A stretch of DNA of 64,000 nt from an uncultured Armatimonadales bacterium (GCA_964252595.1 CAXUNT010000012.1:4537-68536), one strand, 5' to 3'. Positions 28,602 through 62,224 are shown, counted from the stretch's first letter. Numbers and translations are program-made. Notes: generated from the letters alone by a model not told the origin.

Positions 28602-28667
28602 ATTGCAAGAGAGTATACCCGACGTGTGGCGTTGCTTTGTGGGAACCATGTCCTGAAGGACACGGTC

Positions 28668-30871: not shown

Positions 30872-31642
30872 TTATTCCATTGGAAGTGACCGCAAATCCA
30901 GCAGCCGCCCCGTTACCATCGGCTTCGCGTCAGGGCCATTCCAAGCGATTGTCGTCTCGCCCAGAAAATGCCCGAACCAGCCGGCTTGGACTATGGGGAC
31001 GCCGTTGACGACCTGCGGCTCGTGCAGCTTGTTGTGGCTATGGCCGCCGATGATTAAATCTAATTTGGGGCAGGCGGCGGCTAAACGCTCGTCTTCACGC
31101 AGGCCGATGTGGGTCAATGCGATGAGAATGTCGGTCTGTGGGCGCAGACGCGCGATCTGCATCTTCGCCGCTTCAATGGGATCGTCAAAGACAAAGGCGC
31201 TGACTAATCGCGCGGTCATGCGCGGCGTTACCATTGGCACGGTCAGGCCGAAGACCGCCACCCGCAAGCCGTTCGCAAGCGTCTTGGTCCAGGACGGCAC
31301 GACCGGCAGCGTCTCGCCTTTGTCTTCGCGCCAGCGGATGTTGGCGGACAGCACAGGGAATGCGGCACGGCTGAGTTTCAGGCGCAGGAGCGCGTCAGCG
31401 ACGTGGAATTCCCGGTTGCCCAGCGTCATGGCGTCGTAGCCTGCCACGGACATCAAGGTCAAGATCGGCTCGCCGCCGGGCCGGACGCTGACATTACCCG
31501 CGGAAATAGCATCACCGGAGTCCAGCAGCAGGACGTTCTCGTATTTTGCTTTTTCGGTTCTCACAAACGCGGCCTGGGCTGGAGTCAGGTGGTTATGGAA
31601 ATCGTTCGTGTGCAGCACGGTCAGCAGCTTTGGGAATGTCAT
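30872..31642 (-). CDS. Calcineurin-like metallophosphoesterase (5'-nucleotidase/UshA N-terminal-domain type)
   Basis: LTVLHTNDFHNHL, LLDSGDA, GNREF, IGGHSHN. Confidence 0.8.
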   Translation of the reverse strand: MTFPKLLTVLHTNDFHNHLTPAQAAFVRTEKAKYENVLLLDSGDAISAGNVSVRPGGEPILTLMSVAGYDAMTLGNREFHVADALLRLKLSRAAFPVLSANIRWREDKGETLPVVPSWTKTLANGLRVAVFGLTVPMVTPRMTARLVSAFVFDDPIEAAKMQIARLRPQTDILIALTHIGLREDERLAAACPKLDLIIGGHSHNKLHEPQVVNGVPIVQAGWFGHFLGETTIAWNGPDAKPMVTGRLLDLRSLPME

Positions 31643-32172
31643 TGGCGCGGTGCCTCAGTGTGTTTGACGCTCGCGAGATACGCGGCCACGGCTTCGTCTA
31701 AACGCCCCTGGCGGCGCAGGACTTCTTCCACCGCATCGCGCACCGCCCCCGCCCCACCTAGGCGCGGTGTGATCCAGTCGGCGTGCGCTTTCAGTGTTTC
31801 CGACGCATCCGCGACGGCGATCCGGACCCCGGCGACGGCGAACGCCGGCAGGTCGTTGATGTCGTCGCCGACAAACGCCGTTTCTTCGGCTGTCAGCTCA
31901 TACTTCGTCCTAATCTGTAGGAGCGCGGCGGCCTTGTCGCCGCAGTTCTGCACCAAGTCGGTGACTTTCAGCTCCGCCATGCGCGTTTCTACCGCCCGGC
32001 TCGTGCGCCCGGAAATCACAGCAATTTTCAGTCCCACGGACTGGGCCATGACGATGCCGAGGCCGTCGGCGACATGGAACGCCTTCGCCTGCCCGCCGTC
32101 ACTGCCATACAGCAGCGTCCCGTCGGTCAGAGTACCGTCTACATCTAGAGCAATCAGCTTAACTTGCATCAT
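31639..32172 (-). CDS. kdsC: HAD-IIIA phosphatase, 3-deoxy-D-manno-octulosonate 8-phosphate phosphatase type
   Basis: IKLIALDVDGTLTDG and VGDDINDLPA. Adjacent to the arabinose-5-phosphate isomerase. The stop overlaps the next start (ATGA at 31639-31642). Confidence 0.8.
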   Translation of the reverse strand: MMQVKLIALDVDGTLTDGTLLYGSDGGQAKAFHVADGLGIVMAQSVGLKIAVISGRTSRAVETRMAELKVTDLVQNCGDKAAALLQIRTKYELTAEETAFVGDDINDLPAFAVAGVRIAVADASETLKAHADWITPRLGGAGAVRDAVEEVLRRQGRLDEAVAAYLASVKHTEAPRQ

Positions 32173-32173
32173 A

Positions 32174-32542
32174 CTAGAAGAACCCCCTCAGCACGAGGCC
32201 GACTAAGCAGCTAAGCGCCGTCAGTGCAAAAACCGAGATGACGAATGCCGCAAACCCGTCAGCTGTGCGTTTATTCTGATAGCCTAAAGCACCCCCGACA
32301 ATCACGATAATGAAGCCGAAAAGAGCCAGCTTGCCCAAGAACAGGTCAGCGTTAGCAAAGAACCGCATGAGGAAAAAGTTGCGCCCAGCCGCGACAAGCC
32401 CCAGCGACAGCAGCATAAGTGTTCCGACACAGGAATAAAACAGGCCGGAGGACACGAAAGAGGCGAGGCTACGCCGCGGGCTTGTTGCGGGCATCACGGT
32501 TTGAGGCTGGTTATCCGGTGGCGGAGGCCATATGTCGCTCAT
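32174..32542 (-). CDS. Small integral membrane protein, unknown function
   Basis: Four hydrophobic segments. Tightly packed between kdsD and kdsC, with 1-2 nt gaps. Confidence 0.5.
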   Translation of the reverse strand: MSDIWPPPPDNQPQTVMPATSPRRSLASFVSSGLFYSCVGTLMLLSLGLVAAGRNFFLMRFFANADLFLGKLALFGFIIVIVGGALGYQNKRTADGFAAFVISVFALTALSCLVGLVLRGFF

Positions 32543-32544
32543 GG

Positions 32545-33537
32545 CTAGACAATCCCTGCTTTGACTAAATCTTTCAGCGTCAGCATTCCGAGCGGGCGGT
32601 TATCAGCATCTACGACCGGCGCATCCCCGGCTTTTTGACCGGGCAGGGGGTGGAACGTATCCAGCAGGCGCAGGCCCTCAACCGCGAGCAGATCGGCGGA
32701 GACGACGCCGGGACGGAGGGTCATGGCGTCGGACGCCGGACACGACAGCACCTGCTGATCGTCCAGCAAGTGCCGCCGGATGTCGCCGTCAGTCAACAGG
32801 CCCGCGACTTTGCCCTCTGTACCCGTGATGATCGCCGCACCAGCGTTCGCCTGGGTGATGGCGAACATTGCCTCTAGAACGGTTCGCGCGGCAGGCACAA
32901 TCGCCACGGCGTCGCCGGTTCGCATGACATCACGCACACGGAGGGTCAGGCGGCGGCCCAGCGATCCCGCCGGATGCAGGCGCGAATACTGCTCCGGTGT
33001 AAAGTCGCGAGCAGTCATCACGGTCACAGCGAGAGCGTCGGCCACGGCCAGCATCGCCGACGTGCTGGTGGTCGGTGCCAAATTCATGGGGCAGGCTTCG
33101 CGCTCCACCGAAACATCCAGAACGACGGACGCGGCCCGGCCGAGCGTGGATTGCGGCTGCCCCGTGACCGCAATCAGCGGCGTCCCGAACTGGCCGAGCG
33201 CGGGCAGGAGCGCCAGCAGCTCATCGGTCTCGCCGCTGTAGGAGAAGGCAATGACCGAGTCGCCGGACTGGATCATGCCGAGGTCGCCATGCACGGCGTC
33301 GGCGGGGTGCAGGAACTGGGCGGGCGTTCCGGTAGACGACAGCGTCGCCGCCAGCTTCACGCCGATGGTGCCGCTTTTGCCCATGCCCGTGACCACCACG
33401 CGGCCTGTGGTGCCGAGAATAAGGCGCACGGCCTGCGCCCACGCCGCGCCGTCGAGCTGCTCCACCTGCCGGTCCAGCGCCCGCGCGGCTTCCGTGATTA
33501 CCCGCCGCCCTTCGTCCAGCCAATTTGCTTGGTCCAT
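32545..33537 (-). CDS. kdsD: Arabinose-5-phosphate isomerase (KpsF/GutQ/KdsD family; SIS plus tandem CBS domains)
   Basis: VVVTGMGKSG, SYSGETDEL, and a C-terminal CBS pair. Confidence 0.88.
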   Translation of the reverse strand: MDQANWLDEGRRVITEAARALDRQVEQLDGAAWAQAVRLILGTTGRVVVTGMGKSGTIGVKLAATLSSTGTPAQFLHPADAVHGDLGMIQSGDSVIAFSYSGETDELLALLPALGQFGTPLIAVTGQPQSTLGRAASVVLDVSVEREACPMNLAPTTSTSAMLAVADALAVTVMTARDFTPEQYSRLHPAGSLGRRLTLRVRDVMRTGDAVAIVPAARTVLEAMFAITQANAGAAIITGTEGKVAGLLTDGDIRRHLLDDQQVLSCPASDAMTLRPGVVSADLLAVEGLRLLDTFHPLPGQKAGDAPVVDADNRPLGMLTLKDLVKAGIV

Positions 33538-48434: not shown

Positions 48435-48496
48435 CGAGAAAAGTTGTCTCTCTGTAGGCCGCCTCGCGTTCTCCGCCGAGACCCCTGTTTCCCTTC

Positions 48497-48529
48497 CTTA
48501 ACATTGCTTTAACATCGCTCTCGTGTAAT
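48497..48529 (+). promoter_or_regulatory. Pho-box-like promoter module, copy A (orphan)
   Basis: CTTAACAT (48497) and TTTAACAT (48508) lie 11 bp apart. TGTAAT (48524-48529) follows 9 nt after the proximal TTAACA. Confidence 0.5.
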
Positions 48530-48755
48530 AACCAGAGTGCACTCTGATTAAGCGGCTCCGGGGACTGCCGTTCGGCATCAGAAGTACTGTCAATCTCATT
48601 CAGATAGCTGCGTCGCGATTGCCCCCACTGTGCTTGTGTCGGGCTGGTCCATGCGAGGCGTTTCTTTCTCGGCGAGCAGGTCAAAGGGCGGGAGACACAA
48701 CAAACGATACCTCAAAAATAGGTACAATCGCGATCATAAAGGGAGATATGACATC

Positions 48756-49511
48756 ATGAAAGCAGAGACCACAGCGCCCGCTGATGCAAACGCCGCGACG
48801 CCCGCCAAGATGCTCCCGTTTGCCCGCGCCCTGGCTCATGACGTGCAGGCGGCGCTACAGCCTCGCTTGCGTCTTCCTGTTGCCCCGCAAACGTTGCTGT
48901 CGGCAGCCGATGCCTCGCACCAGTTCTACGAGCAGACCTGGCGGCATGTCCAAAGCTTAAACGTTGTCCCCCACGCCTGCGCTGCCGGCTGCGCTTATTG
49001 CTGCCACTTGACTGTTGAAGCATCCGCCCCGGAAGTCTTTTTGATCGCCGCTTTTCTCGCGCATCTGCCTGCCGAACGCCTCGAGGCCGTGAAAGCGCGT
49101 GTCCGCCAAACGGCCACCGCTGTGCGCGGCCTGTCGCCGGACGCGCGTGTCCGTGCCGCCGTGCCATGCGCCCTGCTGGAAGAGGGCCGGTGCAGCGTCT
49201 ACGGTGTCCGGCCCCTCGGCTGCCGGTCGTGGAACAGCCGCGACGCCCGCGCCTGCGCTCAGGTGATGGAGCAGGGCGGGGGAGACTTGCGCCCGGTGCA
49301 GGACCAGCGCCCCGGCGGGATCGAGTCGGGGATACGCGCAGGCTTCGCGGCGGCCCTGCAAGAAGCGGGCCTGCCGGAAGACGACACGCGCCGCTGCGAG
49401 CTGAATACGGCGCTTCAGATCGCACTGGAAGACCCCTCGGCGCTTTCCGGCTGGCTCGGCGGAACCGACACGCTTGCCCCCGCGCGAGCCGCAGTGAAAT
49501 ACGCGAAATAG
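48756..49511 (+). CDS. YkgJ/UPF0153-type cysteine-cluster (CxxCxxCC) zinc/iron-chelating domain protein
   Basis: CAAGCAYCCH ... PCALLEEGRCSVYGVRPLGCRSW. ATG at 48756 with an AAGGGAGA RBS. Confidence 0.7.
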   Translation: MKAETTAPADANAATPAKMLPFARALAHDVQAALQPRLRLPVAPQTLLSAADASHQFYEQTWRHVQSLNVVPHACAAGCAYCCHLTVEASAPEVFLIAAFLAHLPAERLEAVKARVRQTATAVRGLSPDARVRAAVPCALLEEGRCSVYGVRPLGCRSWNSRDARACAQVMEQGGGDLRPVQDQRPGGIESGIRAGFAAALQEAGLPEDDTRRCELNTALQIALEDPSALSGWLGGTDTLAPARAAVKYAK

Positions 49512-49539
49512 GAAGTTTTCAAAAAACTTCCTTCGTTTT
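49511..49539 (+). terminator. Rho-independent terminator
   Basis: GGAAGTTTT-CAA-AAAACTTCC (perfect 9-bp stem) followed by TTCGTTTT. Confidence 0.7.
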
Positions 49540-49578
49540 GTAAGCCGCCTCGCGTTCCCCACCAAAACATCGTTTTCC

Positions 49579-49611
49579 CTTAATGCTCTCTTAACATTGC
49601 CCTTGTATAAT
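49579..49611 (+). promoter_or_regulatory. Pho-box-like promoter module, copy B
   Basis: CTTAATGC (49579) and CTTAACAT (49590) lie 11 bp apart. TATAAT (49606-49611) follows 9 nt after the proximal TTAACA. It sits about 45 nt upstream of the PEP-CTERM gene. Confidence 0.55.
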
Positions 49612-49654
49612 TTCGTGGTTGTACCGTGAAATTTTGTTTAAGGAGCTTCTTTCC

Positions 49655-50278
49655 ATGATGACGTCTCAACTTATCTCGCTCCGGCTGGCCTGCGGCGCAG
49701 CCGTCGCCGCTGCCGGCTTGCTGTCCGCCCCCGGCGCGTTTGCACAGTCCCCAACGCCGACTTCCTACTTCTTCCAAGTCGAGAACAATACGTTGTCCGG
49801 TGGCGATCCTGTCTTTTCCGTGATCGACAACCTGACTTTCAGCAATTTGCAGATCAACGAGACCTTCACCGGCGGCTTTACCCAGACGATCCAGCTTGGC
49901 AGCCTCGATACGGCTACGTTTGACACTTTCAGCAATACGTTTTCAACTTCCAGCCCGCTGACATCGGCAGTTCTCACAGGGAACATCGGCTCCGGCCCCG
50001 CCCAAAATGTGAACACGGAAACGACGATTGGCGGCCCGATCACGCCGCAGTATGTTTCTTCCACGTTCTCTGCTTCCTTGTTCGGCCCCGCGCAAACTGG
50101 AACCGCATTGGGTACCTTCAGCCTTTTAGACGGCAATGACAACGTAGTTAATTCGGTCACTATCCTTGCGCCGGCCGCCGTGCCGGAAGCGTCCACCACC
50201 GTCTCGCTTGGCCTTCTGCTGGCCCTCGGCCTCGGTGCTGTGGCTGTGTCCCGTCGCCGCGCCGCTTCTGCAAAATAA
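49655..50278 (+). CDS. Small secreted PEP-CTERM-anchored protein (paralogue of 54075-54761)
   Basis: AAGGAG RBS and a signal peptide. C-terminal PAAVPEASTTVSLGLLLALGLGAVAVSRRRAAS has the PEP-CTERM layout: VPEAS motif, TM helix, Arg cluster. Confidence 0.85.
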   Translation: MMTSQLISLRLACGAAVAAAGLLSAPGAFAQSPTPTSYFFQVENNTLSGGDPVFSVIDNLTFSNLQINETFTGGFTQTIQLGSLDTATFDTFSNTFSTSSPLTSAVLTGNIGSGPAQNVNTETTIGGPITPQYVSSTFSASLFGPAQTGTALGTFSLLDGNDNVVNSVTILAPAAVPEASTTVSLGLLLALGLGAVAVSRRRAASAK

Positions 50279-50309
50279 TTATTTCGTCAACGATGAGGAA
50301 CATCACACC

Positions 50310-53300
50310 ATGAAACATAGCCAAATCAAGGGCAGCGCCGCCGCACTCGGCGCGGCCTTTTTGACCCTCCTCGGCGGGAGCGCTGCACTCGCGCAGGTCA
50401 ACGGCACTAACTGGGGCACCGTCACTGCTCCCGTCTATGGCACGTCTGAAAAGCAGCGGGCCGACGGCACCGCAACCACCGCTTACAGCAGCGCTGAGCT
50501 TTTAGCAGGGCCGAACAAGTCCGGCGAATTGGTCCTGCCGCCCGGCGCGACCCCGACCTACTTTGACGGCGTCCTGCCGAACGGCAAAATCGTTGCCCCC
50601 GCCGGCATTGTCGCCCAAATCGGAATGCACCCGCTCGGCAGCGCTTTAACCCCTGACGGCCAGTACCTTGTCCTTTCCTGCGATGACGAGCGCAACATCA
50701 CCGGCGGCCTGTCTACTCTGCCTTCGCCCACTTCGGCCGGCGGCTCGGTGAACCTGCTCGGCGGCTACTCCGTGACGGTCCTGCGGACTTCAGACATGAC
50801 CGTCGCCGCTCAGACCGCCGTCGGCCCGCTGTTTGTCGGCCTGCAAATCGTGCCGAGCGGCACCGGCTACACGATCTATGCTTCCGGCGGCGGCGACCAG
50901 AACGTCAAAGTGCTGACGTTCACTCCGCCGGCGGGAACGAGCGCCGGCACCTTGACTTCCGGGACGGCGATCAGAATCAACCCGATCACGCCGAACGCCA
51001 CCCCGACTAATTTCACCCAGGTTCCCCTCAAGACCACGAACCCGGCGACGGGCGTTACTACCTACAGCACCCCGACGACCTTCAATGGCGGCGACTTTCC
51101 TGAAAACTCCGGCAGCAGCGGCGTTCCCGGCGGCGGCGGCTTCGGCAGCACGGGCGGCGGCACAGCAGCGTTCCTGACGGCCAACCAGATTTCGTTCCCC
51201 GCCGGCTCGGCGCTTTCCCCCGACGGCAAGTATCTGTATGTCGCCTGCAACGGCGACAACAGTCTGGCCGTGATCGCGACGGCGGCCAACACCACGGCGA
51301 CGCCCAACACAGTTATTAAGCAGATTCCGGTCGGCTTCCTGCCCTACGGCGTCACGGTCAGCCGCGACGGCACCAAAGTCTTGGTTTCCAACTGGGGCGT
51401 TGAGCCGTACACATTTATTGGCGCACCGACGCAGGATGCTTCCGGCAACATCACTGCACTGGCGTCGGTCACGCCGGGTCAGGATACAAGCGGCCTGTTC
51501 TTTGTCCCTGTGACCAGCATGTCCGGCGGCAACCCGAAAACTTCTTCGGTGTCGGTCATCAGCGTTCCCGGTGCAAACCCGGCGAATGCGTCCGTCGTCG
51601 GCGCGGTCTACGAAGGCCAGCCGGGCGGCCCGGATGACCGTATTCTGGTCGGCGAAACCCATCCGTCCGCTATGGCGATTGTCCGGCTCGGCACGCAGGA
51701 AGTGGAATACGTTACCAAGTCCAACTCCGACTCGCTCGGCCTGATCTTGGTTGCCAACAACCGCAAGCTGCCCGACTTCAACTTGTCCCCGCTGAACCTG
51801 AACCTGCCGGACGGTCACCTTGTCCACGGCTCGTACCCGAATGCCCTGGCGGTCTCGCCCGACAACAAGCGGCTGTATGTCGCCGAAGCGGGCCTGGATT
51901 CTGTGGCTGTGCTGGACGTGTCTACCCCGACTTCGCCGAAGCTGCTGGGCCGCATCCCGACAGGCTGGTATCCTTCCGCCTTGTCGGTGAGCGCCGACGG
52001 CCAGACCCTGTACGTCGTCAACGATAAAGGCGTCGCGGAGGACCTGAACCCGAAGACGGATTTTGCCGGCAACCCGACTGCGTCCGGGATCGAGTCGTTC
52101 TCCAACTCAAACTCGATGTTCGGGACGGTGCAGAAAATCAATTTGGCGTCTTTGCCGCTGGACAACACGACAGCACTGAAAAACGACTTCGCGGTCCAGA
52201 ACGCGGCCAATCTTGACACCAGCATTGTCCCAATTGGCGGCGGGGCGTCCGGCAAGATCAAGCACGTCATCTTTATCCTGCATGAAAACAAGACGTTTGA
52301 CTCCATGCTCGGCAACCAGCCGCATTTCGGCGTTTTTGCCAACCAAGATTACAACTTGGCTTCCGGCGCGACTTCTTTTGACCAGGAATATGCCGTCACC
52401 GGCTACACGGGCTTTACGTCCATCGCCCTGAACACGCAGGCGCTGGCCGACACGTTCGCCACCGGCGTCAACTACTACTCGGACGCGGAAGAAAGCGACG
52501 GCGGACATCAATTTTCGGCTTCCGGCACGGCGTCGGACTTCACCGAAAAAACGCTGCTGGTCAAAGGCGGGCGCGGTTTGCTCTCGAACAAGAACATGGA
52601 GCCGGAAGATTACCCGGAAGGCGGCTACATCTTCAACAACGCCGCCCGGAACAACGTCTCGTTCAAGGACTACGGCGCTTTGATCCGCGTCACCGGCACT
52701 GACAACGGCTATGCGAACCCCGCCAAGACCATTGACCCGCCGAGCGGCTTGGCTGGCGTTCCCGTCGCCCCCGAAAGCAGCCCCGTTCTGAACGGCATGA
52801 ACACAGTCGGCCAGCAGAACCCGCCGAACGGCACTGCCACAACGCCCAATACGGCGGTCGCGACCCCCGCCGCCACAAACCAGCCGGCGGAAGTAAACGG
52901 CATCTACAACAGTGCCGCAAACCCCACGGGCAGCGATGTCACTTCACTGACTCAGGGCCTGGGCCAGTCCTACTTCCTGAAGAACCCGATCCTGGCAATT
53001 TTGGGCGAAAGCAACGCCAGCGGCGAGCCGCATTTGGATAAAAACTATCCTGGCTACAACTTCGGCATTTCCGATCAGCGCCGCGCCTTAGAGTTCAACA
53101 AGGACTTTGACCGCATGGCGGCTGCCGGAACGCTGCCGACGTACATCTACTTGTATCAGCCGAACGACCACTCCGGCAATCCGGCGGCGACCTCAAACAT
53201 CGCCATCACCGGCGGCAGCCCTTCCGGCGCGGAGCTGATCGCCGACGGCGACACGGCTTTGGGTATGGTCGTCAAGCACATCATGCAGAGCCAGGCGTAC

Positions 53301-53900
53301 TACAACAGCGCAGACGGCACCGGCTCGGCGATCTTCTTCACCTATGACGATGCCCAGTCGGGCCGCGACCACCTGGACCCACACCGGACGCCGATGATCG
53401 TCATCAGCCCCTATGCCAAGCCCGGCTTCCTGGCGACGCGCCACTACTCAACGGCCTCCATCGTCAAGACCGAAGAACTGCTGATGGGCCTGCCGCCGAA
53501 CAACTACGGCGACCTGCTGGCAACCGATCTGCGCGATATGTTCCAGTCCACCTACAACGGTATCCACCTCAGCGCCGACGGCCTGACCCTCTTGGGGCCG
53601 AACCAAATGTCGCTTGCCAAGCTGCACGCGAAAAGCACTTATGTGGCAACCGCACCGGGCCGCAAAGTGTGGACGTTGTCGCAGAAGCTGGATTCGTCCT
53701 CCCCGGACCAAGATTCCTACCGCCTCAGCATGGTCACCCTGCTGTCCATGCAGGCCGACACGCTGTACCATCAAGCCGCGAAGAAGCACACGCTGAACAC
53801 GGCAGCCTACAAGTCCGAGCAGGCGCGTGTCTACCAGGCTGCGATCAAAGTCGTCAACGGCCCGAAAGTCGGCGGCGATGACGATAAAGACGGCGGCTAG
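50310..53900 (+). CDS. Secreted fusion protein: N-terminal YVTN/YncE-like beta-propeller repeats plus a C-terminal phosphoesterase-family (phospholipase C / AcpA acid-phosphatase type) domain
   Basis: Propeller-like units (SALSPDGKYLYVACNGDNSLAVI, VTVSRDGTKVLVSN, LAVSPDNKRLYVAEAGLDSVAVLD, LSVSADGQTLYVVN). Phosphoesterase start block IKHVIFILHENKTFDSMLG and late blocks FTYDDAQSGRDHLDPHRTPMIVISPY. ATG at 50310 with a GAGGAA RBS. Confidence 0.8.
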   Translation: MKHSQIKGSAAALGAAFLTLLGGSAALAQVNGTNWGTVTAPVYGTSEKQRADGTATTAYSSAELLAGPNKSGELVLPPGATPTYFDGVLPNGKIVAPAGIVAQIGMHPLGSALTPDGQYLVLSCDDERNITGGLSTLPSPTSAGGSVNLLGGYSVTVLRTSDMTVAAQTAVGPLFVGLQIVPSGTGYTIYASGGGDQNVKVLTFTPPAGTSAGTLTSGTAIRINPITPNATPTNFTQVPLKTTNPATGVTTYSTPTTFNGGDFPENSGSSGVPGGGGFGSTGGGTAAFLTANQISFPAGSALSPDGKYLYVACNGDNSLAVIATAANTTATPNTVIKQIPVGFLPYGVTVSRDGTKVLVSNWGVEPYTFIGAPTQDASGNITALASVTPGQDTSGLFFVPVTSMSGGNPKTSSVSVISVPGANPANASVVGAVYEGQPGGPDDRILVGETHPSAMAIVRLGTQEVEYVTKSNSDSLGLILVANNRKLPDFNLSPLNLNLPDGHLVHGSYPNALAVSPDNKRLYVAEAGLDSVAVLDVSTPTSPKLLGRIPTGWYPSALSVSADGQTLYVVNDKGVAEDLNPKTDFAGNPTASGIESFSNSNSMFGTVQKINLASLPLDNTTALKNDFAVQNAANLDTSIVPIGGGASGKIKHVIFILHENKTFDSMLGNQPHFGVFANQDYNLASGATSFDQEYAVTGYTGFTSIALNTQALADTFATGVNYYSDAEESDGGHQFSASGTASDFTEKTLLVKGGRGLLSNKNMEPEDYPEGGYIFNNAARNNVSFKDYGALIRVTGTDNGYANPAKTIDPPSGLAGVPVAPESSPVLNGMNTVGQQNPPNGTATTPNTAVATPAATNQPAEVNGIYNSAANPTGSDVTSLTQGLGQSYFLKNPILAILGESNASGEPHLDKNYPGYNFGISDQRRALEFNKDFDRMAAAGTLPTYIYLYQPNDHSGNPAATSNIAITGGSPSGAELIADGDTALGMVVKHIMQSQAYYNSADGTGSAIFFTYDDAQSGRDHLDPHRTPMIVISPYAKPGFLATRHYSTASIVKTEELLMGLPPNNYGDLLATDLRDMFQSTYNGIHLSADGLTLLGPNQMSLAKLHAKSTYVATAPGRKVWTLSQKLDSSSPDQDSYRLSMVTLLSMQADTLYHQAAKKHTLNTAAYKSEQARVYQAAIKVVNGPKVGGDDDKDGG

Positions 53901-53923
53901 TTTGCCTCCTGCCCGCATCCCCT

Positions 53924-53952
53924 GCCCCGGTTCTGATGAGCCGGGGCTTTTT
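53924..53952 (+). terminator. Rho-independent terminator
   Basis: GCCCCGG-(10 nt)-CCGGGGC followed by TTTTT. Confidence 0.65.
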
Positions 53953-53978
53953 CCTGTCTCCACTCTGATCCGCCGCTT

Positions 53979-54033
53979 CTTAATGTTAACTTAATGTCTT
54001 CTTAACACTGGTTTAACATTGCCCCCGTATAAT
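53979..54033 (+). promoter_or_regulatory. Pho-box-like promoter module, copy C: four direct repeats phased at 11 bp, plus TATAAT
   Basis: CTTAATGT (53979), CTTAATGT (53990), CTTAACAC (54001), TTTAACAT (54012). TATAAT at 54028-54033. Confidence 0.6.
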
Positions 54034-54074
54034 GATCAGGTTGCACCATCCACAAGCATTGAGGAGACACATCC

Positions 54075-54761
54075 ATGAACACCACCCACTTCGCCTTTCG
54101 CTCATTTTTCGGTTTTGCCGTCGCCGGAGCCGCGCTCTGTTCGGCGGGCGGCGCGTCCGCTCAGACCGCAACTCCCTTTTATGCGTTTGTCGTCAGCAAC
54201 CTGACCGAATCCAACGGCAGCCTCGCTTACCCGGTGTATGACTCGGTGACGTTCGCCTCCCCGGAGATCAATGAAGTCTTTGCCGACGGATATACCAATT
54301 CTTTTGCCATCGGCGACGCGAACAACAGTGTGCAGGCAATGGACAAGCAGGCCAGCGCCTTGATGACGTCAGCGCCCGGCACCGGGTTTTCCGATCCGGT
54401 ACATGGAGCGCTGACCTCGGCTACCCTGACCGGCAGCCTTGCTTTTCCGAACTTCGGGCCGGCGAACACTCTTTCCCTTTCTGTTCTGACAGATGCCGCC
54501 GGGGACCAGACCCAGCAGAGCGTTTTCACCCCGTTTTCCGCCTCTTTGTTCGGTCCCGCCTCATCGGGCATCGCCGTCGGCACGTTCAGCCTGATGAACC
54601 TCGGCAGCAGCCAGGGCACGACGGTGGACATTGATGCGACGCCGGTTCCCGCCGCTGTTCCCGAAGCCTCCACCAACGTATCTCTCGGCCTGCTCCTGAT
54701 GCTCGGCCTCGGCGGCACGGTCATCGCCCGCCGCCGGCGCACGGCAAGCGCGGCAAGCTGA
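54075..54761 (+). CDS. Small secreted PEP-CTERM-anchored protein (paralogue of 49655-50278)
   Basis: GAGGAG RBS and a signal peptide. Shared blocks FSASLFGPA..G.A.GTFSL and PAAVPEASTNVSLGLLLMLGLGGTVIARRRRTAS. Confidence 0.85.
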   Translation: MNTTHFAFRSFFGFAVAGAALCSAGGASAQTATPFYAFVVSNLTESNGSLAYPVYDSVTFASPEINEVFADGYTNSFAIGDANNSVQAMDKQASALMTSAPGTGFSDPVHGALTSATLTGSLAFPNFGPANTLSLSVLTDAAGDQTQQSVFTPFSASLFGPASSGIAVGTFSLMNLGSSQGTTVDIDATPVPAAVPEASTNVSLGLLLMLGLGGTVIARRRRTASAAS

Positions 54762-54817
54762 ACAAGCGCCCGGATTATCTCACGATTACCTTCTCACGAT
54801 TCTCTAAGGAGACACCG

Positions 54818-57721
54818 ATGACTACCCTGAGCTTTCTGAAACATCATGCCCTCTTCTGCGCCGCTGCCGCCGCCGCAGTCGCCCTGCTCGGCTCGGCCGC
54901 GACGGCGCAGACCCCGGCGCCGCCGTCCGCCGTGAACCCGCTTGTGACCGGCAAAAGCATCACGCTTCCGCCGCTCGGCTCGACCACCAACGTCGGCAGC
55001 CTGCCCATGAACATGATCGTCACGCCCGACGGCAAGTTCGCGATCTCCACCGACATGGGCTTTCGCGAGTCCCTGCATGTCCTCAGCACTACGACCGGCA
55101 AAGACGCCGGCCCAGCCCTTGTCTTCGGCCCGGATGCCGGCAATACGACGTTCGGCCCGAACGGATTGTATTACGGCCTTGCCGCTCAGTCCAATCCCGA
55201 CGGCAGCTCGACCATTTATGCCTCCGAAGGCACCGTCACTGCGCCGGCAAAATCCGGTCTTCCGAACACCGGTGCGGTGGCCGTGGTCAACGTCAGCCCG
55301 GCGGGAACGCTCACGCTAGCCAAGACGATCACCCTGAAAAATCCCGGCGACTTCCCAGCAGGCGTCGCGCTTGACAGCCGCGGCTACCTGTACGTCGCCA
55401 TCAACGAGAACTATGGCGCAGGCTCCATCGCCAACATCACAACGCCGGGCAGCCTCGCGATCATCAATACCAGCACCGGCGCGGAAGTAGGACGCTACTC
55501 GTTTGCCGAAGCCGCCGGCAACCTCACGCTCGGTGGAGGCAACACCGCGTCGTTTACGCCGTCAAACTTCCCGCTGTCGGTCGCGGCTCTGAGCGACGGC
55601 TCCAAAGTCTATGTGTCTTCCCAGCGCGACAACGCCGTTTATGTCCTCAACTGCGCCAGTCCAGCGGCCCCGACCCAGAGCGCGGCGCTCGCGACCGGGC
55701 AGCATCCGATCTCCCTGCTGCTCAACAAAGCGCAGACCAAGCTGTATGTCGCCAATGCCCATAGCGAAACCGTCTCAGTGGTGAATACCACGAACAACAC
55801 GGTTGCCGCCACAGTCCTGCTCCAGCCGACCGGTACGCGCGGCCTATCCGGCGTCACCCCCACCGGTCTCGGCTTGACCCCGGACGAGAGCCGGCTGTAT
55901 GTGTCCCTCGGCGACATGAACGCCATCGGCGTCGTGGACACGGCCTCTAATGCGCTCATCGGCTACATCCCGGCCGGCTGGTATCCGACCGCCGTGGTCG
56001 CGTCTCCCGTCAAACCTGTGATTTTAGTCGCCAACGCCAAAGGCACGCTGACCCGCTACCCGAACCCCAGCTATCAGCAGTTCTCTTTCGCCAACCAATA
56101 TGACCTGAACATCATTGAAGGCAACGTGGAAACGATCCGCGTTCCCGGCGCATCCCAGCTTGCATCGTACACGCAGATGACGCTGGCGAACAACAAAATT
56201 GCGGCCATCGCCAATCCGGCGCCCAGCCCGCTGGCGGGCATTAATCTCGCCGCGCAGAACGGCATCAAACACGTTTTCTACATCATCAAGGAAAACCGGA
56301 CCTACGATCAGGTGCTGGGCGATCTGCCCCAGGGCAACGGCGACTCCAGCCTGGTGCTGTTTGGGAAAAACGTCACGCCCAACCTGCACGCGCTGGCGTC
56401 CCGGTTTGTCCTGCTGGACAACTTCTACGACTGCGCGGAAGCGTCCGGCGACGGCTGGCCCTGGTCCACCCAGGGGCAGGCGTCCGAGTACGTCATCAAG
56501 AACCTGCCGTACAACTACAGCGGCCGCGGGCGCAATTACGACTTTGAGGGCGCGAACAACAATTATCCCGTCGGCGGCTTTCCGGCCACCGATCCTTACG
56601 GCCAGCCGCTGGTGCCGTCTTCGCCGTTCCGCGACCCCGCCACCGGCGCCGCCCCGGCCATCCATGACGTGTCCGTTGCACCCGGCGGCCATATCTGGGA
56701 CGATGTCCAGGAGAACGTCAATCTCGCCGGCACCGGCCTGACGACAAAGTACCGCAACTACGGCTTCTTTGCGCTCTTTGGCGACAACGTCAACACGCCC
56801 GACAACTACCCGACTGATCTCGGTCTGCAGCCCGCCGGACATGACGGCGGCGGCGTGACGGACATTGACTTCCGCGAGTACGATGCCACTTACCCGGACA
56901 GCGAGGGACCGGCCGCCGTCAGCAGCTTGTACCCCAGAGCCGCCTATGGGCATTACAACGCGCCCAGCCGCTACACAGAATGGAACCGCGAGTTCCAGCA
57001 GATGCTGGCCGCCAAACCCGACGGCAGCACAGTCCCGGCGTTTGAGACCGTGCGATTCATGCACGACCACACGCAGGGCGTCTCGGTCGTCACGGACTCG
57101 ACAGGCAACTACATCCGGTCGAACCACCTGCCGACGGCGGAAGTCGCCGACAACGACTATGGCATCGGCCAGTTCGTGCAGGCGATCAGCAGCAGCCCGA
57201 TCTGGAACTCGTCGGCAATTTTTGTCATTGAAGACGACGCGCAGGACGGCCCGGACCATGTGGACTGTCACCGGTCCACGTGCTATGTCATCAGCCCGTT
57301 CATCAAGAAATCATCGGTAGACCACACGTTCTACAACACCGACAGCGTCTTGAAGACGATGGAGCTTCTCTTGAACATCCCGCCGATGAACCAGTACGAT
57401 GCCACGGCCAACCCAATCCTGGACTTCGACACTACGGCCAGCAACACCGGCGTCTACACGGCTACCCAGCCTGCCGCCTCCATCCTGAGCGGCCTTGCTC
57501 CTGCTCCGACCTCCAGCAGCCGTGCGTTGCTGCCGCTGGAAACACTCTGCGCCACAATGGACTTTGTCCACCCCGACAGCGCTCCGGCCGCCGTGCTGAA
57601 CGAAGTCATCTGGAAAAGCGTCAAAGGCATGCACTCCAAGATGCCTGCGATCCGCCATGCCACTAGCCTGCTCGGCAAGACGCCGGCGGCTCACACTGCC
57701 CGCAAAGACAGCGACGAATAA
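54818..57721 (+). CDS. Secreted beta-propeller plus phosphoesterase-family fusion protein (paralogue of 50310-53900)
   Basis: AAGGAG RBS and a signal peptide. Propeller units (VTPDGKFAIS, LSDGSKVYVSSQRDNAVYVLN, LNKAQTKLYVANAHSETVSVVN, LTPDESRLYVSLGDMNAIGVVD). IKHVFYIIKENRTYDQVLGDL and FVIEDDAQDGPDHVDCHRSTCYVISPF. Confidence 0.8.
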   Translation: MTTLSFLKHHALFCAAAAAAVALLGSAATAQTPAPPSAVNPLVTGKSITLPPLGSTTNVGSLPMNMIVTPDGKFAISTDMGFRESLHVLSTTTGKDAGPALVFGPDAGNTTFGPNGLYYGLAAQSNPDGSSTIYASEGTVTAPAKSGLPNTGAVAVVNVSPAGTLTLAKTITLKNPGDFPAGVALDSRGYLYVAINENYGAGSIANITTPGSLAIINTSTGAEVGRYSFAEAAGNLTLGGGNTASFTPSNFPLSVAALSDGSKVYVSSQRDNAVYVLNCASPAAPTQSAALATGQHPISLLLNKAQTKLYVANAHSETVSVVNTTNNTVAATVLLQPTGTRGLSGVTPTGLGLTPDESRLYVSLGDMNAIGVVDTASNALIGYIPAGWYPTAVVASPVKPVILVANAKGTLTRYPNPSYQQFSFANQYDLNIIEGNVETIRVPGASQLASYTQMTLANNKIAAIANPAPSPLAGINLAAQNGIKHVFYIIKENRTYDQVLGDLPQGNGDSSLVLFGKNVTPNLHALASRFVLLDNFYDCAEASGDGWPWSTQGQASEYVIKNLPYNYSGRGRNYDFEGANNNYPVGGFPATDPYGQPLVPSSPFRDPATGAAPAIHDVSVAPGGHIWDDVQENVNLAGTGLTTKYRNYGFFALFGDNVNTPDNYPTDLGLQPAGHDGGGVTDIDFREYDATYPDSEGPAAVSSLYPRAAYGHYNAPSRYTEWNREFQQMLAAKPDGSTVPAFETVRFMHDHTQGVSVVTDSTGNYIRSNHLPTAEVADNDYGIGQFVQAISSSPIWNSSAIFVIEDDAQDGPDHVDCHRSTCYVISPFIKKSSVDHTFYNTDSVLKTMELLLNIPPMNQYDATANPILDFDTTASNTGVYTATQPAASILSGLAPAPTSSSRALLPLETLCATMDFVHPDSAPAAVLNEVIWKSVKGMHSKMPAIRHATSLLGKTPAAHTARKDSDE

Positions 57722-57780
57722 TCGCTGCCTGGCTTGAAGTATAACGGCGGCGAGTAGCGCCGGCCGCCTGAAATAGAAGA

Positions 57781-57814
57781 CCCCGGTTCCAAGCAGTGGA
57801 ACCGGGGCTTTTTT
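57781..57814 (+). terminator. Rho-independent terminator
   Basis: CCCCGGTTCC-AAGCAGT-GGAACCGGGG followed by CTTTTTT. Confidence 0.8.
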
Positions 57815-57952
57815 CGGCTGATGAAATACAAACAAATTACTTTGTGAAATAAAGCAACAAAGGCGGGTATAATCCCAGCAGAAATATCCGCAGAGGTATG
57901 ATTTGTGATGCCCCCCTCCCCCGACCGAATCAACAAGAAAGAGACGCCCCGT

Positions 57953-59926
57953 ATGGACCAACCCGACACAAGCGCGACGCCGCTATTGACAATGTCGTTA
58001 TTGGACGGGATCAACAGCCCCGCCGACCTTAAAGGGCTTTCCCCGGAGCAGCTCAAGACGCTTGCTCAGGAAATCCGCGTGTATTTGACCCAGACCGTCG
58101 CCAAAACCGGCGGGCATCTCGCGCCTTCGCTCGGCGTCGTCGAGCTGACTTTGGCCCTGCACAAAGTCTACAACCTGCCGAAAGATAAGCTGATCTGGGA
58201 TGTCGGGCATCAAGGCTATGTTCACAAGATACTGACGGGGCGCCGCGACCAGCTCCCGACGATCCGGCAGCACGGCGGCCTGTCGGGCTTTCTGCGGATT
58301 GATGAGTCCCCATTTGATTTGTACGGCGCGGGCCACGCATCCACGTCCATCTCGGCGGCGATGGGGTTTGCCAAAGCCCGCGACTTCCGGGGCGCGAAGC
58401 ATTCCGTGCTGGCCCTGATCGGCGACGGTGCACTCACCGGCGGCATGGCATTAGAGGGCCTGAACAATGCCGCCGATGACGGCACGGACATTACGATTGT
58501 TTTGAACGACAACGAGATGTCCATTGCCGAGAACGTCGGGGCGCTGGCGACGTATCTTGCAAAGCTCCGCATGGAGCCGCTATATCAGGCGGGCGAAAAC
58601 ACGGCCAAGCGTATGATCGCCGGGATGCCGGTCGGCTCCGAAATCATCAAGAAAGCGGCCAAGGCGGCCAAGCACACGGCGACCCATTTTGCGACCCCAG
58701 CCCACAAGGGCCTGCTGTTTGAGGAAATGGGCTTCACCTACATCGGTCCGATTGACGGCCACAATCTAGAAAATCTGGTCAATGTGTTCCAGCATGTCAA
58801 GCGCTTGAAAGGCCCGGTCCTGGTCCATGTGCTGACCGTGAAAGGCAAAGGCATTCCGTATGCCGAAGCGAACTCACGGACTTATCACGGCCTCGGCAAG
58901 TTCAGCCCCGACGACGGCAAGACCGAGGCGAAGCTCGCCGGCGTCAGCTTCACGGATGCATTTGTCGAGACTTTGAACGATCTGGCGGAGACCGACGACA
59001 AAATTGTTGGCATCACCGCCGCCATGCCCGACGGCACGGGCCTCAACAAGTTCGCCAAGCTCCACCCCGAACGCTTTTTTGATGTCGGCATCGCCGAGCA
59101 GCACGCGGTCGTCTTCGCCGCCGGCCTGGCCGCCGAAGGCTTCAAGCCTGTGGCTGCCATTTATTCCACGTTTTTACAACGCGCCTACGACCCCATTATT
59201 CACGACGTTGCCTTGCAGCGCCTGCCCGTCCGGTTCTTTTTAGATCGAGGCGGACTCGTTGGGGACGACGGCGGGACCCACCACGGCGTTTTTGACCTCG
59301 CTTACCTCCGCTGCATTCCCAACTTGGTCCTGATGGCGCCAAAAGACACCGACGAGATGCGGGCCATGACCCGTTTTGCCCTGAACTATGACGCCGGTCC
59401 GATTGCCGTGCGCTACCCGCGGGGCGGGCAGGACGCGCTCGGCGAGCAGCCGCGTCCCATCGAGATGGGCCGGGCCGAAACCCTGCGCCGGGGCGGCGAC
59501 ACCGCGCTGATCGGCCTCGGCGCAGGCGTCAAGATCGCGCTCGACGCCGCCGACATCCTCGCGGGGCAGGGCGTGGAAGCGACCGTCATCAATGCCCGCT
59601 TCTGCAAGCCCTTGGATTCCGAGGCCATTCTCAGCGCTGCCCGCCGCTGCGGCTCGGTCGTGACCATCGAAGACGGCGTCGCGTCTGGCGGCTTCGGCTC
59701 GGCCGTTTTAGAACTGCTGTCCGAGGCTGGCCTGACCGTTCCGGTCTCCGTCATCGGCCTGCCCGACCATTTCATTGAACACGGCACGATTCCTGTCCTG
59801 CGAGATTTAGCGGGCTTGACCGCCGAAGAAACTGCTCGCAAGGCGCTGGCGCAGATGCCTCACCATCCTGCACTTGTCAGCGGCACGGACAGCACATTTG
59901 AAAAGCTGCCGGCGGGAGTGCGCTGA
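57953..59926 (+). CDS. dxs: 1-deoxy-D-xylulose-5-phosphate synthase
   Basis: LLDGINSPADLKGLS..QL..LAQEIR, GHQGYVHKILTGR, GDGALTGGMALEGLN, and a transketolase-like C-terminus. The start is ambiguous: the ATG at 57953, or the ATG at 57992, which matches typical Dxs N-termini. TATAAT at 57869-57874. Confidence 0.9.
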   Translation: MDQPDTSATPLLTMSLLDGINSPADLKGLSPEQLKTLAQEIRVYLTQTVAKTGGHLAPSLGVVELTLALHKVYNLPKDKLIWDVGHQGYVHKILTGRRDQLPTIRQHGGLSGFLRIDESPFDLYGAGHASTSISAAMGFAKARDFRGAKHSVLALIGDGALTGGMALEGLNNAADDGTDITIVLNDNEMSIAENVGALATYLAKLRMEPLYQAGENTAKRMIAGMPVGSEIIKKAAKAAKHTATHFATPAHKGLLFEEMGFTYIGPIDGHNLENLVNVFQHVKRLKGPVLVHVLTVKGKGIPYAEANSRTYHGLGKFSPDDGKTEAKLAGVSFTDAFVETLNDLAETDDKIVGITAAMPDGTGLNKFAKLHPERFFDVGIAEQHAVVFAAGLAAEGFKPVAAIYSTFLQRAYDPIIHDVALQRLPVRFFLDRGGLVGDDGGTHHGVFDLAYLRCIPNLVLMAPKDTDEMRAMTRFALNYDAGPIAVRYPRGGQDALGEQPRPIEMGRAETLRRGGDTALIGLGAGVKIALDAADILAGQGVEATVINARFCKPLDSEAILSAARRCGSVVTIEDGVASGGFGSAVLELLSEAGLTVPVSVIGLPDHFIEHGTIPVLRDLAGLTAEETARKALAQMPHHPALVSGTDSTFEKLPAGVR

Positions 59927-60601: not shown

Positions 60602-62224
60602 ATGACGACGCAACGGAATGTGTGGCAGAGAGTTTCTAGGCTTGGCAGCAGGCCGGAGTTTTGGCTGGCTGCCGTGCTGGCGTGGGCGCTGGCGTCAGCC
60701 TCCCGCAGTCTCGGAACGCCCTGGGCGGCAGCGGCGGGGACTGAGGCGCTGCGGTGGACAGCGGGAATTGGCCTCGCGCTGGCCGCCGGCTGGGGGCTGC
60801 GCCGGACGGAAATGGCCGGGCAGCTTGCCGTGCTGCTTCTCGGCGCGATGGCAGGGATCGGTATTCTCGGCAGCGGGTCGGTGCAGGGCGACCTGACAGG
60901 GCCGTACCGGGACCATCAGTTGTACGGGTCGGTTCTCCTTCTTCTCCTTCCGTTCAGCGCCGGAGTCGCGCTGTTCGCTAAGTCTTCGTCCTGGCGCGGG
61001 GCGGCGCTGGCGGCTTTGACCGCCGGGACATTGTGCCTCTTTCTCAGCGAGACCCGCAGCGCCTGGTTTGGACTGGCCGCCGCCGGCCTCGTTTTTGGCG
61101 GTCTGCGGTGGAAGCTGCTGTCACAGCAGAGACTTTCGCTGAAAGCGCTTTTACAGCAGCGGGCGGCGCTGGTTCCCCCGGCCGTTCTTCTTCTCGGCCT
61201 CCTCTTCGGTTTGCTTTCCATCTGGCTTTTGTCCAGCCCGCCCGACCAGAAGGCCGCACTTTTGGCGCGGGCCGGAACGCTGCTTGCCCTCAGCCATGAT
61301 GAAAGCTGGCAGACGCGGCTCGCACTTTGGCGCGGCACGGCGCATCTGGTCGCCGCCCGCCCGCTGACCGGGATCGGGCTGGGGCGCTACCCCGGTGCGG
61401 AGTGGCGCTGGACCCATACCGGCGGGATTTTGCTTCCCAGCGAGCATCCGTCCCTGACTAATCAAGCCCATTCGTTTTACGGGCAGACGGCGGCGGAGAT
61501 CGGGCTGCCGGGCCTCGGCCTGTACCTGGCGGCTCTAGCGGCATTTGCCGTGCAGGCATGGCGGCGGATGATCCCAAGCCGGCGGCGGCAGTCACCCAGC
61601 GGACAGCAGATGCTGCTGATTGCAGCAGTCAGCGCCGTGGCCGGGCAGAGCGTGGATGCGCTGGCTTCGCCGTCGTGGCAATTCCCGGAAGCATCGCTGC
61701 TATTTTGGGCCGTACTGGGCCTGGGCCTCGCATCGCTCCGGCGCGAAACCGTCCCTGCTCCCCTGCCCGTCCCGCTTCAGCGAGTGGGCCGCTGGGCGTT
61801 GTCCGGCGGGCTGGCCGTGGCGCTGGCCGCGCAAATCCTGCCGACAGGCCTGCTGCTGACCCCGGTGGAAGCGTATGCCGCCCCGGCGGGATGGAAGCTG
61901 ACATCCGTCAAGCTTTCTTTGGTTTCACCGACGGGAGCAATCCTGGCCGGCAATATGCTTCAGTTCCAGGTCATCGCGACGTACAGCACAGACATGCTGG
62001 GCCACACGCAGACCGCCGATGTCACCACCAGCACCGGATACACCGTTGCCCTGAGCTATCCAGGATACAGCCACACGGCGGTCCCGTTCAGTAACGGGCA
62101 GTATACCGCGCCGTCCAACTCGTACACGGGCAGCGAAACGCTCAGCATTGCCGCGCGTTTTCAGGACACCAGCAGCGGACAGGTGGCTTACTCAAGCCTC
62201 CCGCTGACGTTCACGCAGCATTGA
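60602..62224 (+). CDS. O-antigen ligase/polymerase-like (Wzy_C-type) polytopic membrane protein with a C-terminal Ig-like domain
   Basis: Many TM segments. SETRSAW, LTGIGLGRY..., NQAHSFYGQTAAEIGLPG are typical of O-antigen ligase-like proteins. GGAGG RBS. Confidence 0.7.
   Translation: MTTQRNVWQRVSRLGSRPEFWLAAVLAWALASASRSLGTPWAAAAGTEALRWTAGIGLALAAGWGLRRTEMAGQLAVLLLGAMAGIGILGSGSVQGDLTGPYRDHQLYGSVLLLLLPFSAGVALFAKSSSWRGAALAALTAGTLCLFLSETRSAWFGLAAAGLVFGGLRWKLLSQQRLSLKALLQQRAALVPPAVLLLGLLFGLLSIWLLSSPPDQKAALLARAGTLLALSHDESWQTRLALWRGTAHLVAARPLTGIGLGRYPGAEWRWTHTGGILLPSEHPSLTNQAHSFYGQTAAEIGLPGLGLYLAALAAFAVQAWRRMIPSRRRQSPSGQQMLLIAAVSAVAGQSVDALASPSWQFPEASLLFWAVLGLGLASLRRETVPAPLPVPLQRVGRWALSGGLAVALAAQILPTGLLLTPVEAYAAPAGWKLTSVKLSLVSPTGAILAGNMLQFQVIATYSTDMLGHTQTADVTTSTGYTVALSYPGYSHTAVPFSNGQYTAPSNSYTGSETLSIAARFQDTSSGQVAYSSLPLTFTQH

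Follow-up and report, generated by a model that had tools for sequence, protein, structure and literature searches.

In a 64,000-nucleotide stretch of DNA from an uncultured Armatimonadales bacterium (GCA_964252595.1 CAXUNT010000012.1:4537-68536; hereafter the window), we identified two adjacent, paralogous operons that appear to serve the phosphate-starvation response of a Capsulimonadaceae-type member of the Armatimonadota. Each consists of a gene for a small protein with a sorting tail of the PEP-CTERM type, followed by a gene for a large protein that joins a beta-propeller to a phosphoesterase domain. In the mechanism we propose, a response regulator of the PhoB/SphR type would bind YTTAAY repeats at low phosphate and activate each operon. 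The large protein, a propeller fused to a phosphoesterase of the AcpA/phospholipase C (PLC) family, would be exported by the Sec pathway and free phosphate from organic phosphoesters outside the cytoplasm. The small protein would also be exported, its tail keeping it in the membrane until cleavage by an exosortase allowed passage to the cell surface or matrix, where it may act as a surface tether or a substrate-capturing partner that holds the freed phosphate near the cell. We put the probability that this account as a whole is the best explanation at about 0.6. Its broader core, two Pho-controlled operons for secreted phosphoesterases headed by an exosortase-type cargo protein, we regard as highly probable.

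The first unit comprises small1 (49655-50278, 207 residues) and big1 (50310-53900, 1196 residues), and the second small2 (54075-54761, 228 residues) and big2 (54818-57721, 967 residues), all on the + strand. By inspection, all four proteins begin with Sec-type signal peptides ending in A-x-A-Q. In small1 the signal peptide is followed by a beta-sandwich domain of ~150 residues and a VPEAST tail encoded by 50180-50275; its paralogue small2 has the same architecture, with the tail encoded by 54657-54758. The large proteins are tail-less: big1 carries a YVTN/lactonase-type beta-propeller and a PF04185 domain with low-complexity insertions, and big2 a 7-bladed YVTN propeller (residues ~40-410) and a PF04185 domain (residues ~480-870). 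A terminator scan left the gaps between small and big genes (31 nucleotides in unit 1, 56 in unit 2) free of terminators and placed intrinsic terminators 3' of the big genes only, both on the + strand. That of unit 1 lies at 53924-53952 (hairpin 53924-53947, a 10-bp stem with 8 GC pairs, then TTTTT), and that of unit 2 at 57781-57814 (hairpin 57781-57807, an 11-12-bp stem with 8 GC pairs); the latter is bidirectional, with a T run on either strand. We therefore read each unit as a single operon. A preliminary description of this DNA had proposed the same four open reading frames (ORFs), with their sizes, promoter modules and terminators, and we recovered all four ORFs and both terminators as it had placed them.

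The same description saw the two units as a tandem duplication and the small proteins as paralogues. Paralogy holds for both gene pairs: small1 and small2 are 41% identical in protein comparison (E=3e-29), and big1 and big2 are 28-35% identical over propeller and phosphoesterase (E=5e-23 and 2e-19). The picture of the duplication needs correction with respect to age. At the DNA level, likeness between the units is restricted to the promoter (47 nucleotides, 72%) and the tail-coding stretch (89 nucleotides, 72%), so the duplication of the two-gene unit is an old event rather than a recent one. Units 1 and 2 form separate orthologous groups, both of which are kept across related genomes.

The promoters of the two units carry direct YTTAAY repeats that end 10 nucleotides before a TATAAT box, in the -35 position. 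Unit 1 (49579-49611, + strand) has two Pho-box-like repeats, CTTAATGCTCT and CTTAACATTGC, followed by 5 nucleotides and TATAAT at 49606-49611, while unit 2 (53979-54033, + strand) has four with an 11-bp period, CTTAATGTTAA, CTTAATGTCTT, CTTAACACTGG and TTTAACATTGC, again followed by 5 nucleotides and TATAAT, at 54028-54033. A third promoter of this kind precedes a gene just upstream, termed gene X (48497-48543, + strand); identified by pattern search, as the third member of direct-repeat family D3 and by a register shared with the two cassette promoters, it combines two YTTAAY boxes, CTTAACATTGC and TTTAACATCGC, with a -10-like TGTAAT. The two-box pattern has 5 matches in the 64 kb, against 0.03 expected, all of them at the promoters of gene X, small1 and small2; the three-box pattern has 2 matches in the window, against 0.00 expected. 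At the unit 1 promoter a sigma-70 scan found no -35/-10 pair and no -35 element, which is the expectation for an activator-dependent promoter. In all related loci, the array is kept in register 5' of every small gene and occurs nowhere else in those loci. The promoter modules proposed earlier are thus real in both units, as conserved YTTAAY arrays before TATAAT.

The Pho box of SphR, the cyanobacterial PhoB homologue, consists of at least three tandem 8-bp repeats, CTTAACCT, with 3-bp linkers (PMC1906773). The core and spacing of the window repeats equal this consensus, which comes from another phylum: the arrays share the YTTAAY core, the 11-bp period and the position just 5' of the -10 box, in two to five copies, and differ in that small1-type promoters have only two boxes plus an upstream element, CGCCTCGCG. 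We also scanned metagenome contigs for a -10 box preceded by three such boxes. Most of the 120 matches were AT-rich repeats or chance occurrences, and the tally of 30 genes, picked by hand after exclusion of the genes of the cassette and of ORFs that were AT-rich, short or eukaryote-like, is indicative rather than unbiased. Within it, the commonest Pfam family was the PstS-type PBP_like_2 (4/30 genes), and the pattern also preceded genes for PstC, a Na/Pi cotransporter, a phosphate porin O/P, a big-type phosphoesterase and a small-family protein. On contig L085, four boxes with the same -10 spacing stand before an operon encoding an SLH-porin O/P, PstS, PstCA, PstB, PhoB, PhoR and a PhoU-like protein; this contig (GC 0.59) probably comes from the Armatimonadota, the nearest named relatives of its PstS being Chthonomonadales and other Armatimonadota. 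In L145, an Armatimonadetes metagenome-assembled genome (MAG), CTTAACgcattCTTAATaatccgccagTAGATT lies 5' of pstSCA. Given the match to the Pho box and the same array before the pst operons of L085 and L145, control of the two window operons by phosphate starvation is a well-supported prediction. The preliminary description had called the enzymes phosphate-scavenging, and the Pho-box-like promoters lend that role independent backing.

Two further elements were noted in these promoters. The conserved sequence TGTARGCCGCCTCGCGTTCYCC lies just 5' of the boxes of gene X and small1, at 48453-48495 and 49539-49581, and CGCCTCGCG occupies the same place in several promoters, mostly small1-type, of L001, L002, L011 and L015; this element could be UP-like or could serve as the site of an additional regulator. 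A GTTG(T/C)ACC motif at 49618-49625 and 54040-54047, 6 nucleotides past the -10 box and at the likely transcription start, is present in most cassette promoters across all genomes. In unit 1 it falls within a hairpin with an 11-bp stem (49609-49633), in a short 5' leader.

Both large proteins pass the model cut-offs for the domains assigned to them in the preliminary description. Against PF04185 (Phosphoesterase; cut-off 23), big1 scored 35.8 bits and big2 46.7 bits; with the YVTN repeat model TIGR02276 (cut-off 27.85), the corresponding scores were 48.9 and 70.6 bits. In the PDB, 1L0Q, a YVTN propeller of archaeal origin, was matched at E=3e-25 with a single sequence and at 6e-47 with a profile of 20 homologues. 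The profile of 20 big2 homologues matched the acid phosphatase AcpA (2D1G) at 8e-16 and a phospholipase C (8K3G) at 4.5e-6; the PLC match covers the N-terminal motif, and the C-terminal motif block aligns to AcpA. In an AlphaFold2 (AF2) model of big2, residues ~40-410 form a confident 7-bladed propeller (mostly pLDDT 80-96) that matches 1L0Q and YncE. With 20 sequences the phosphoesterase half was poorly modeled, so the fold search returned propellers only. Eleven residues are invariant in the 20 homologues (big2 numbering: E492, N493, S543, D750, H751, D806, D807, D813, H814, H818 and R819), and they fall in the motif blocks ENRT/SxD (492-497), S543, D750-H751 and DDxQxGxDHxDxHR (806-819). 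These may correspond to AcpA Glu43, Asn44, Ser175, Asp386 and Asp387, its metal ligands and Ser nucleophile. Since the charged motif residues are invariant across homologues, the enzymes are probably active.

The large proteins resemble Francisella AcpA (2D1G), PLC and non-specific PLC in their ENR(T/S)xD, DH and DDxxxGxDHVxxHR motifs and in exceeding the PF04185 threshold. They differ in the N-terminal 7-bladed YVTN propeller, in large insertions and in subfamily scores: the AcpA subfamily model TIGR03397 gave 25.2 and 38.6 bits, far under its cut-off of 362.75, and the PC-PLC model TIGR03396 gave 18.8 bits against 580.25. A weak similarity in the propeller region links them to the choice-of-anchor I family (NF038117/PF22494), with which they would share the concept of one catalytic module used with alternative anchors; unlike members of that family, for whose model both score 22.9 bits against a cut-off of 300, any anchor here would be a separate protein rather than a part of the same chain. 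Propeller-phosphoesterase fusions are widespread, with more than 2,289 relatives at E<=1e-10, named at source 'YVTN family beta-propeller protein' or 'alkaline phosphatase family protein'. Our literature searches returned no paper on such fusions and no characterized member, and we know of none. Members of the PF04185 family are secreted and tied to phosphate limitation. We consider it likely that the big enzymes release phosphate from external organophosphates. A plant member of the family, NPC4, is the subject of PMC9837106. In another lineage (L144, 1-8709), a propeller-phosphoesterase gene has no small partner and is grouped with genes that encode a TonB-dependent receptor, a nucleotide pyrophosphatase/phosphodiesterase and a second phosphoesterase, consisting of PF04185 alone. 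This phosphorus-scavenging cluster seems to be a variant of the cassette's strategy in which uptake takes place at the outer membrane.

The pairing of small and big genes is conserved. The preliminary description had made synteny between homologues of the small protein and phosphoesterase genes a test of its idea, and a neighborhood survey bears this synteny out. Counting loci with enough downstream sequence, a small gene lies directly 5' of propeller-phosphoesterase genes in 13 distinct related loci and in two further loci with distant family members, L142 and L143, spanning at least three genomic contexts, and one to three such genes follow it in every one of the related loci. The order seen in the window, small1-big1-small2-big2, recurs in L001/L009, L007, L008 and L010, and L011 has small1-big1-small2-big3-big2. 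Other arrangements are small2-big3-big2 with flagellar genes adjoining (L002/L013), small-big1-big3-big2 with a histidine kinase adjoining (L003-L006) and small-big1-big3 (L016 and L017); in L012, L014 and L015, small is followed by big1 and the contig ends within or just past it. Subtype matching is kept throughout, small1-type genes going with big1-type and small2-type with big2/big3-type, and the big1 orthologues behind small1-type genes in related loci are 71-85% identical. In L142, the gene next to that of the small-family protein P0221 (canonical PEP tail; small-profile E=4.6e-12), on its 3' side, is of the big1 type with 46% identity, and in L143 a 199-residue distant member with a canonical PEP tail is followed by two enzyme genes. 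At least 16 contig sizes are common to the match lists of the small and big proteins. No small-family gene lacking a following enzyme gene was found among the loci with enough downstream sequence.

Scans of Pfam and NCBIfam found no family that spans the body of the small proteins. Matches to known PEP-CTERM families (NF038129, FxDxF, THxN, PepA and others) were rejected, as they stayed below cut-off and were confined to approximately the C-terminal third. The AF2 model of small2 consists of a beta-sandwich and a C-terminal helix (residues 198-226), with a pLDDT of 82 and a core above 90. A profile stripped of signal peptide and tail, searched against 1.84 billion representative proteins, gave 60 matches, nearly all of them stand-alone proteins of 170-250 residues; the few long matches were considered as fusions and rejected, being unrelated Ig-like or type IX secretion system (T9SS) proteins. 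All relatives with a named organism come from Armatimonadota MAGs (Capsulimonadaceae, 'uncultured Armatimonadales'). The small protein represents a new, undescribed beta-sandwich cargo family, found only in Armatimonadota where the organism is named. Among the neighbors of the cassette are prepilin/DUF1559-type genes, which are common in this phylum.

The two small proteins end in VPEASTTVSLGLLLALGLGAVAVSRRRAASAK and VPEASTNVSLGLLLMLGLGGTVIARRRRTASAAS, which have the PEP-CTERM layout of motif, hydrophobic helix and basic cluster. In 33 close family members the tail reads V-P-E-A-S-T, then a Gly/Leu-rich helix, then RRR, with P196, E197, A198, S199 and an RR pair invariant. The Pro-Glu-Pro signature is absent from the window proteins, which have Pro-Glu-Ala-Ser instead, and the standard model TIGR02595 is reached by 18 of the 33 close members only at E<=10. 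Distant members, recovered with the tail-less profile, end in canonical VPEPG/S...RRR tails: the 123 family sequences include 72 with PEA and 24 with PEP, the latter only in distant members, and P0212 (23.7 bits), P0236 (21.8 bits) and P0045 (17.3 bits) pass the TIGR02595 cut-off of 16 bits. As distant members of the family bear canonical PEP-CTERM tails, the tail of the window proteins can be read as a lineage-specific Pro-Glu-Ala-Ser variant of that signal. An identical tail, PAAVPEASTTVSLGLLLMLGLGG, is found on P0069-P0075, proteins of the lineage whose N-terminal parts are unrelated. We conclude that the small protein belongs to a larger set of cargo proteins in this lineage.

What the small protein does is the less certain part of our account. 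The preliminary description had suggested that it may be a surface anchor or partner of the enzyme encoded beside it. The small gene heads every such operon, and the enzymes never bear an anchor of their own: the sorting tail, which the earlier description had already reported as lacking from the two large proteins, is absent from big1, big2 and all 120 of their closest homologues (0/120). An accessory of the enzymes is therefore its most likely role, although we rate that role at even odds. Processing by an exosortase seems somewhat more probable than the accessory role itself. The more specific assignment as a surface tether or substrate-capturing partner can be offered only tentatively. Doubtful, in our view, is the strictest version, a 'split' anchored enzyme in which the small protein, once processed by an exosortase, would be a dedicated anchor acting in trans to hold the tail-less enzymes at the surface or matrix.

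Several observations weigh against the account given here. Neither small1 nor small2 matches TIGR02595 at E<0.1, and both fall short of its curated cut-off; the PEP-CTERM label attached to them in the preliminary description stands through their family homology to members with canonical tails, and fails on the window proteins themselves, which have PEA and not PEP. An exosortase gene was not found in the 64-kb window, nor near a tail-bearing gene at L146. For the window this had been said before and is confirmed: its only polytopic membrane ORFs encode an amino-acid transporter, a LIC_10190-family protein and an O-antigen-ligase-like protein, none of them an exosortase. Foldseek with the small-protein model found no significant structural relative (best E=0.04). 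A small domain fused to a phosphoesterase was not found in the profile search of 1.84 billion proteins, so the partnership lacks Rosetta-stone support. Most of the enzyme family occurs without a small partner, as in L144. Finally, one small gene serves one to three enzyme genes in an operon, which argues against a strict one-to-one partner and is better suited to a general accessory.

Some of these points favor a different explanation, that the two genes are co-regulated but independent. The small cargo would then be a starvation-induced surface or matrix protein, acting in adhesion, flocculation or envelope remodeling without contact with the enzymes. The presence of a single small gene per operon regardless of enzyme number fits such independence, as do the many unrelated cargo proteins that use the same tail and the failure of the profile search to find a small-big fusion. 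To our knowledge, the only PEP-CTERM proteins with a known function are matrix or floc components, which also speaks for this explanation, and NCBIfam lists floc_PepA. It is harder to reconcile with the strict adjacency of the two genes, which persists down to low similarity (P0221 at E=4.6e-12, with a big protein 46% identical) and across at least three genomic contexts. Nor would independence explain why the subtypes stay paired, small1 with big1 and small2 with big2/3, or why no small gene without an enzyme occurs among loci with enough downstream sequence. We regard independent cargo as possible, yet not as the favored explanation, and as about as probable as the specific tether or substrate-capturing role.

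The regulatory part of the account can also be questioned. The repeats might be bound by another regulator of the OmpR family, with the operons answering a different signal. Direct repeats spaced by 11 bp are typical of OmpR/PhoB-family regulators generally, the annotated parts of the window yielded neither pst genes nor phoB or phoR, and the link between array and pst was observed on other Armatimonadota contigs (L085 and L145) rather than in the genome of the window. In addition, two matches to the pattern, on the high-GC contigs L099 (855-898, - strand) and L116, are four-box YTTAAY arrays with TATAAT before a gene for a SpoU-family RNA methyltransferase. These observations, too, count on the opposing side. 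Against another regulator, the core equals the published Pho box and PstS-type genes are the commonest behind the pattern; a complete pst-phoBR-phoU operon bears the same array with the same -10 spacing; and the regulated genes are phosphoesterases. Regulation by a different signal is improbable on this evidence. One of L099 and L116 shares its assembly with a contig that carries the cassette (JAABUQ01), and SpoU is no obvious Pho gene.

Two further explanations concern the mode of action of the small protein, and we consider each of them to have only a slight chance of being correct. In the first, its C-terminal helix would fix the beta-sandwich to the periplasmic side of the inner membrane, where it would act before, or in place of, exosortase cleavage as a folding helper, secretion adaptor or inhibitor. 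The first position in the operon and the strict co-occurrence would suit such a helper, for which the lipase-specific foldases encoded next to their lipases offer an analogy; the C-terminal transmembrane helix predicted at residues 198-226 and the large, multidomain enzymes with nothing but a Sec signal would suit it as well. However, family scans and Foldseek detected no likeness to a known chaperone or foldase, and the conserved PE[AP] and Arg cluster indicate sortase-like processing rather than a plain membrane anchor.

The second would be a lipid-directed system, in which PLC-type enzymes act together with a small C2/PLAT-like membrane-binding module supplied in trans, much as the C-terminal domain of Clostridium perfringens alpha-toxin supplies such a module in cis. 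Phospholipases C are found within PF04185, the N-terminal motif of the big profile matches PLC 8K3G, and C2/PLAT domains are overrepresented among the weak top Foldseek matches of the small protein (perforin, dysferlin, myoferlin C2, alpha-toxin 1QM6 with a probability of 0.60, and lipoxygenase). Those matches are non-significant, however (E>=0.04, TM-scores <=0.3), the PC-PLC equivalog model gave 18.8 bits against 580, and in the PDB the acid phosphatase AcpA is matched more strongly.

The kinds of component assembled in these phosphate-starvation operons are already known: PF04185 phosphoesterases, YVTN propellers, PEP-CTERM-type signals and PhoB-type Pho boxes. PEP-CTERM/exosortase protein sorting was reportedly described by Haft et al. 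in 2006. The small proteins resemble its cargo in having an N-terminal signal peptide and a C-terminal motif, hydrophobic helix and Arg cluster, in sharing one tail with many unrelated proteins of the lineage, and in having distant relatives with VPEP that score above the model cut-off. They depart from it in the invariant Pro-Glu-Ala-Ser with its sub-threshold score, and in that an exosortase gene was not found in the window. New are the fixed operon partnership of a small-protein family with tail-less propeller-phosphoesterases, the PEAS variant of the sorting motif, which the standard model misses, and a candidate Pho box for the Armatimonadota. Our literature searches found no PEP-CTERM protein with a conserved client enzyme or Pho-type control, and nothing on PEP-CTERM in Armatimonadota; we know of no PEP-CTERM protein with such a client or such regulation.

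The candidate Pho box makes prediction of the Pho regulon possible in a poorly studied phylum, and the widespread, uncharacterized propeller-phosphoesterase fusions are flagged as likely phosphate scavengers of soil and lichen-associated bacteria. As the PEAS signal escapes the standard model, exosortase cargo of this lineage is probably under-annotated. PEP-CTERM families have been cataloged in the hundreds, with very few of known function, and the target to which exosortases attach their cargo is unclear. The locus offers a handle on such cargo, with a fixed enzyme neighbor and a predicted low-phosphate inducer, and at least one relative from the phylum, Capsulimonas, is in culture. A trans-acting anchor, if confirmed, would mark the first time that a client enzyme is defined for an exosortase cargo, and the regulation, if confirmed, would make the small protein the first of the PEP-CTERM type with demonstrated induction by phosphate starvation. 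The locus makes it possible to test directly what one family of exosortase cargo does.

Several other features of the window are recorded here. The O-antigen-ligase-like gene (60602-62224) encodes a 540-residue polytopic membrane protein that resembles O-antigen ligases, with weak matches to IctB; against TIGR03097, 'exosortase A system-associated O-glycosylation ligase', it scored 35.5 bits (cut-off 188). The histidine kinase that adjoins the cassette in L001 and L003 was set aside as a candidate, as the corresponding position in the window holds the O-antigen-ligase-like gene instead; the kinase of L001 is a PAS histidine kinase and that of L003 of the generic WalK/PnpS/PhoR type. At 30872-33537 on the - strand, a fragment (256 residues) of a UshA-like 5'-nucleotidase/metallophosphoesterase lies beside genes for KdsC and a KpsF/GutQ arabinose-5-phosphate isomerase; the latter two belong to the Kdo pathway and are consistent with an outer membrane bearing lipopolysaccharide. 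GC skew is clearly negative over 50001-58000 (-0.11 to -0.155), compared with ~±0.05 (maximum ±0.09) elsewhere in the window, probably reflecting the Ala/Pro/Thr-rich coding strand of the cassette. Rfam and tRNA scans of the window gave nothing relevant; a tRNA-like structure reported by ARAGORN at 28523-28602 (- strand), with an undetermined two-base anticodon and no Rfam match, is probably a false positive.

Gene X (48756-49511, + strand) encodes a 251-residue CxxCxxCC protein (PF03692, YkgJ-like; Pfam E=8.9e-6, 26.8 bits, cut-off 23), a putative zinc/iron chelator, and a hairpin lies at 49510-49532. It adjoins the cassette in six related loci (L001, L008, L010, L012, L014 and L017) and possibly belongs to the same regulon. 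A 51-nucleotide inverted repeat, 80% complementary (48632-48682 and 57923-57973), flanks gene X and both operons. Its right arm is the true 5' end of dxs and its left arm a leftover dxs copy: the 41-nucleotide core of the left arm is 93-95% identical to the dxs start of L001/L008, and its best 38-nucleotide segment is 89% identical to the window's own dxs. With respect to the flanking WYL and dxs genes, L001, L008 and L009 have the block in the opposite orientation to that of the window; dxs lies on the L001-like side in L011 and on the window-like side in L010. The inverted repeat looks like the footprint of a 9.2-kb inversion.

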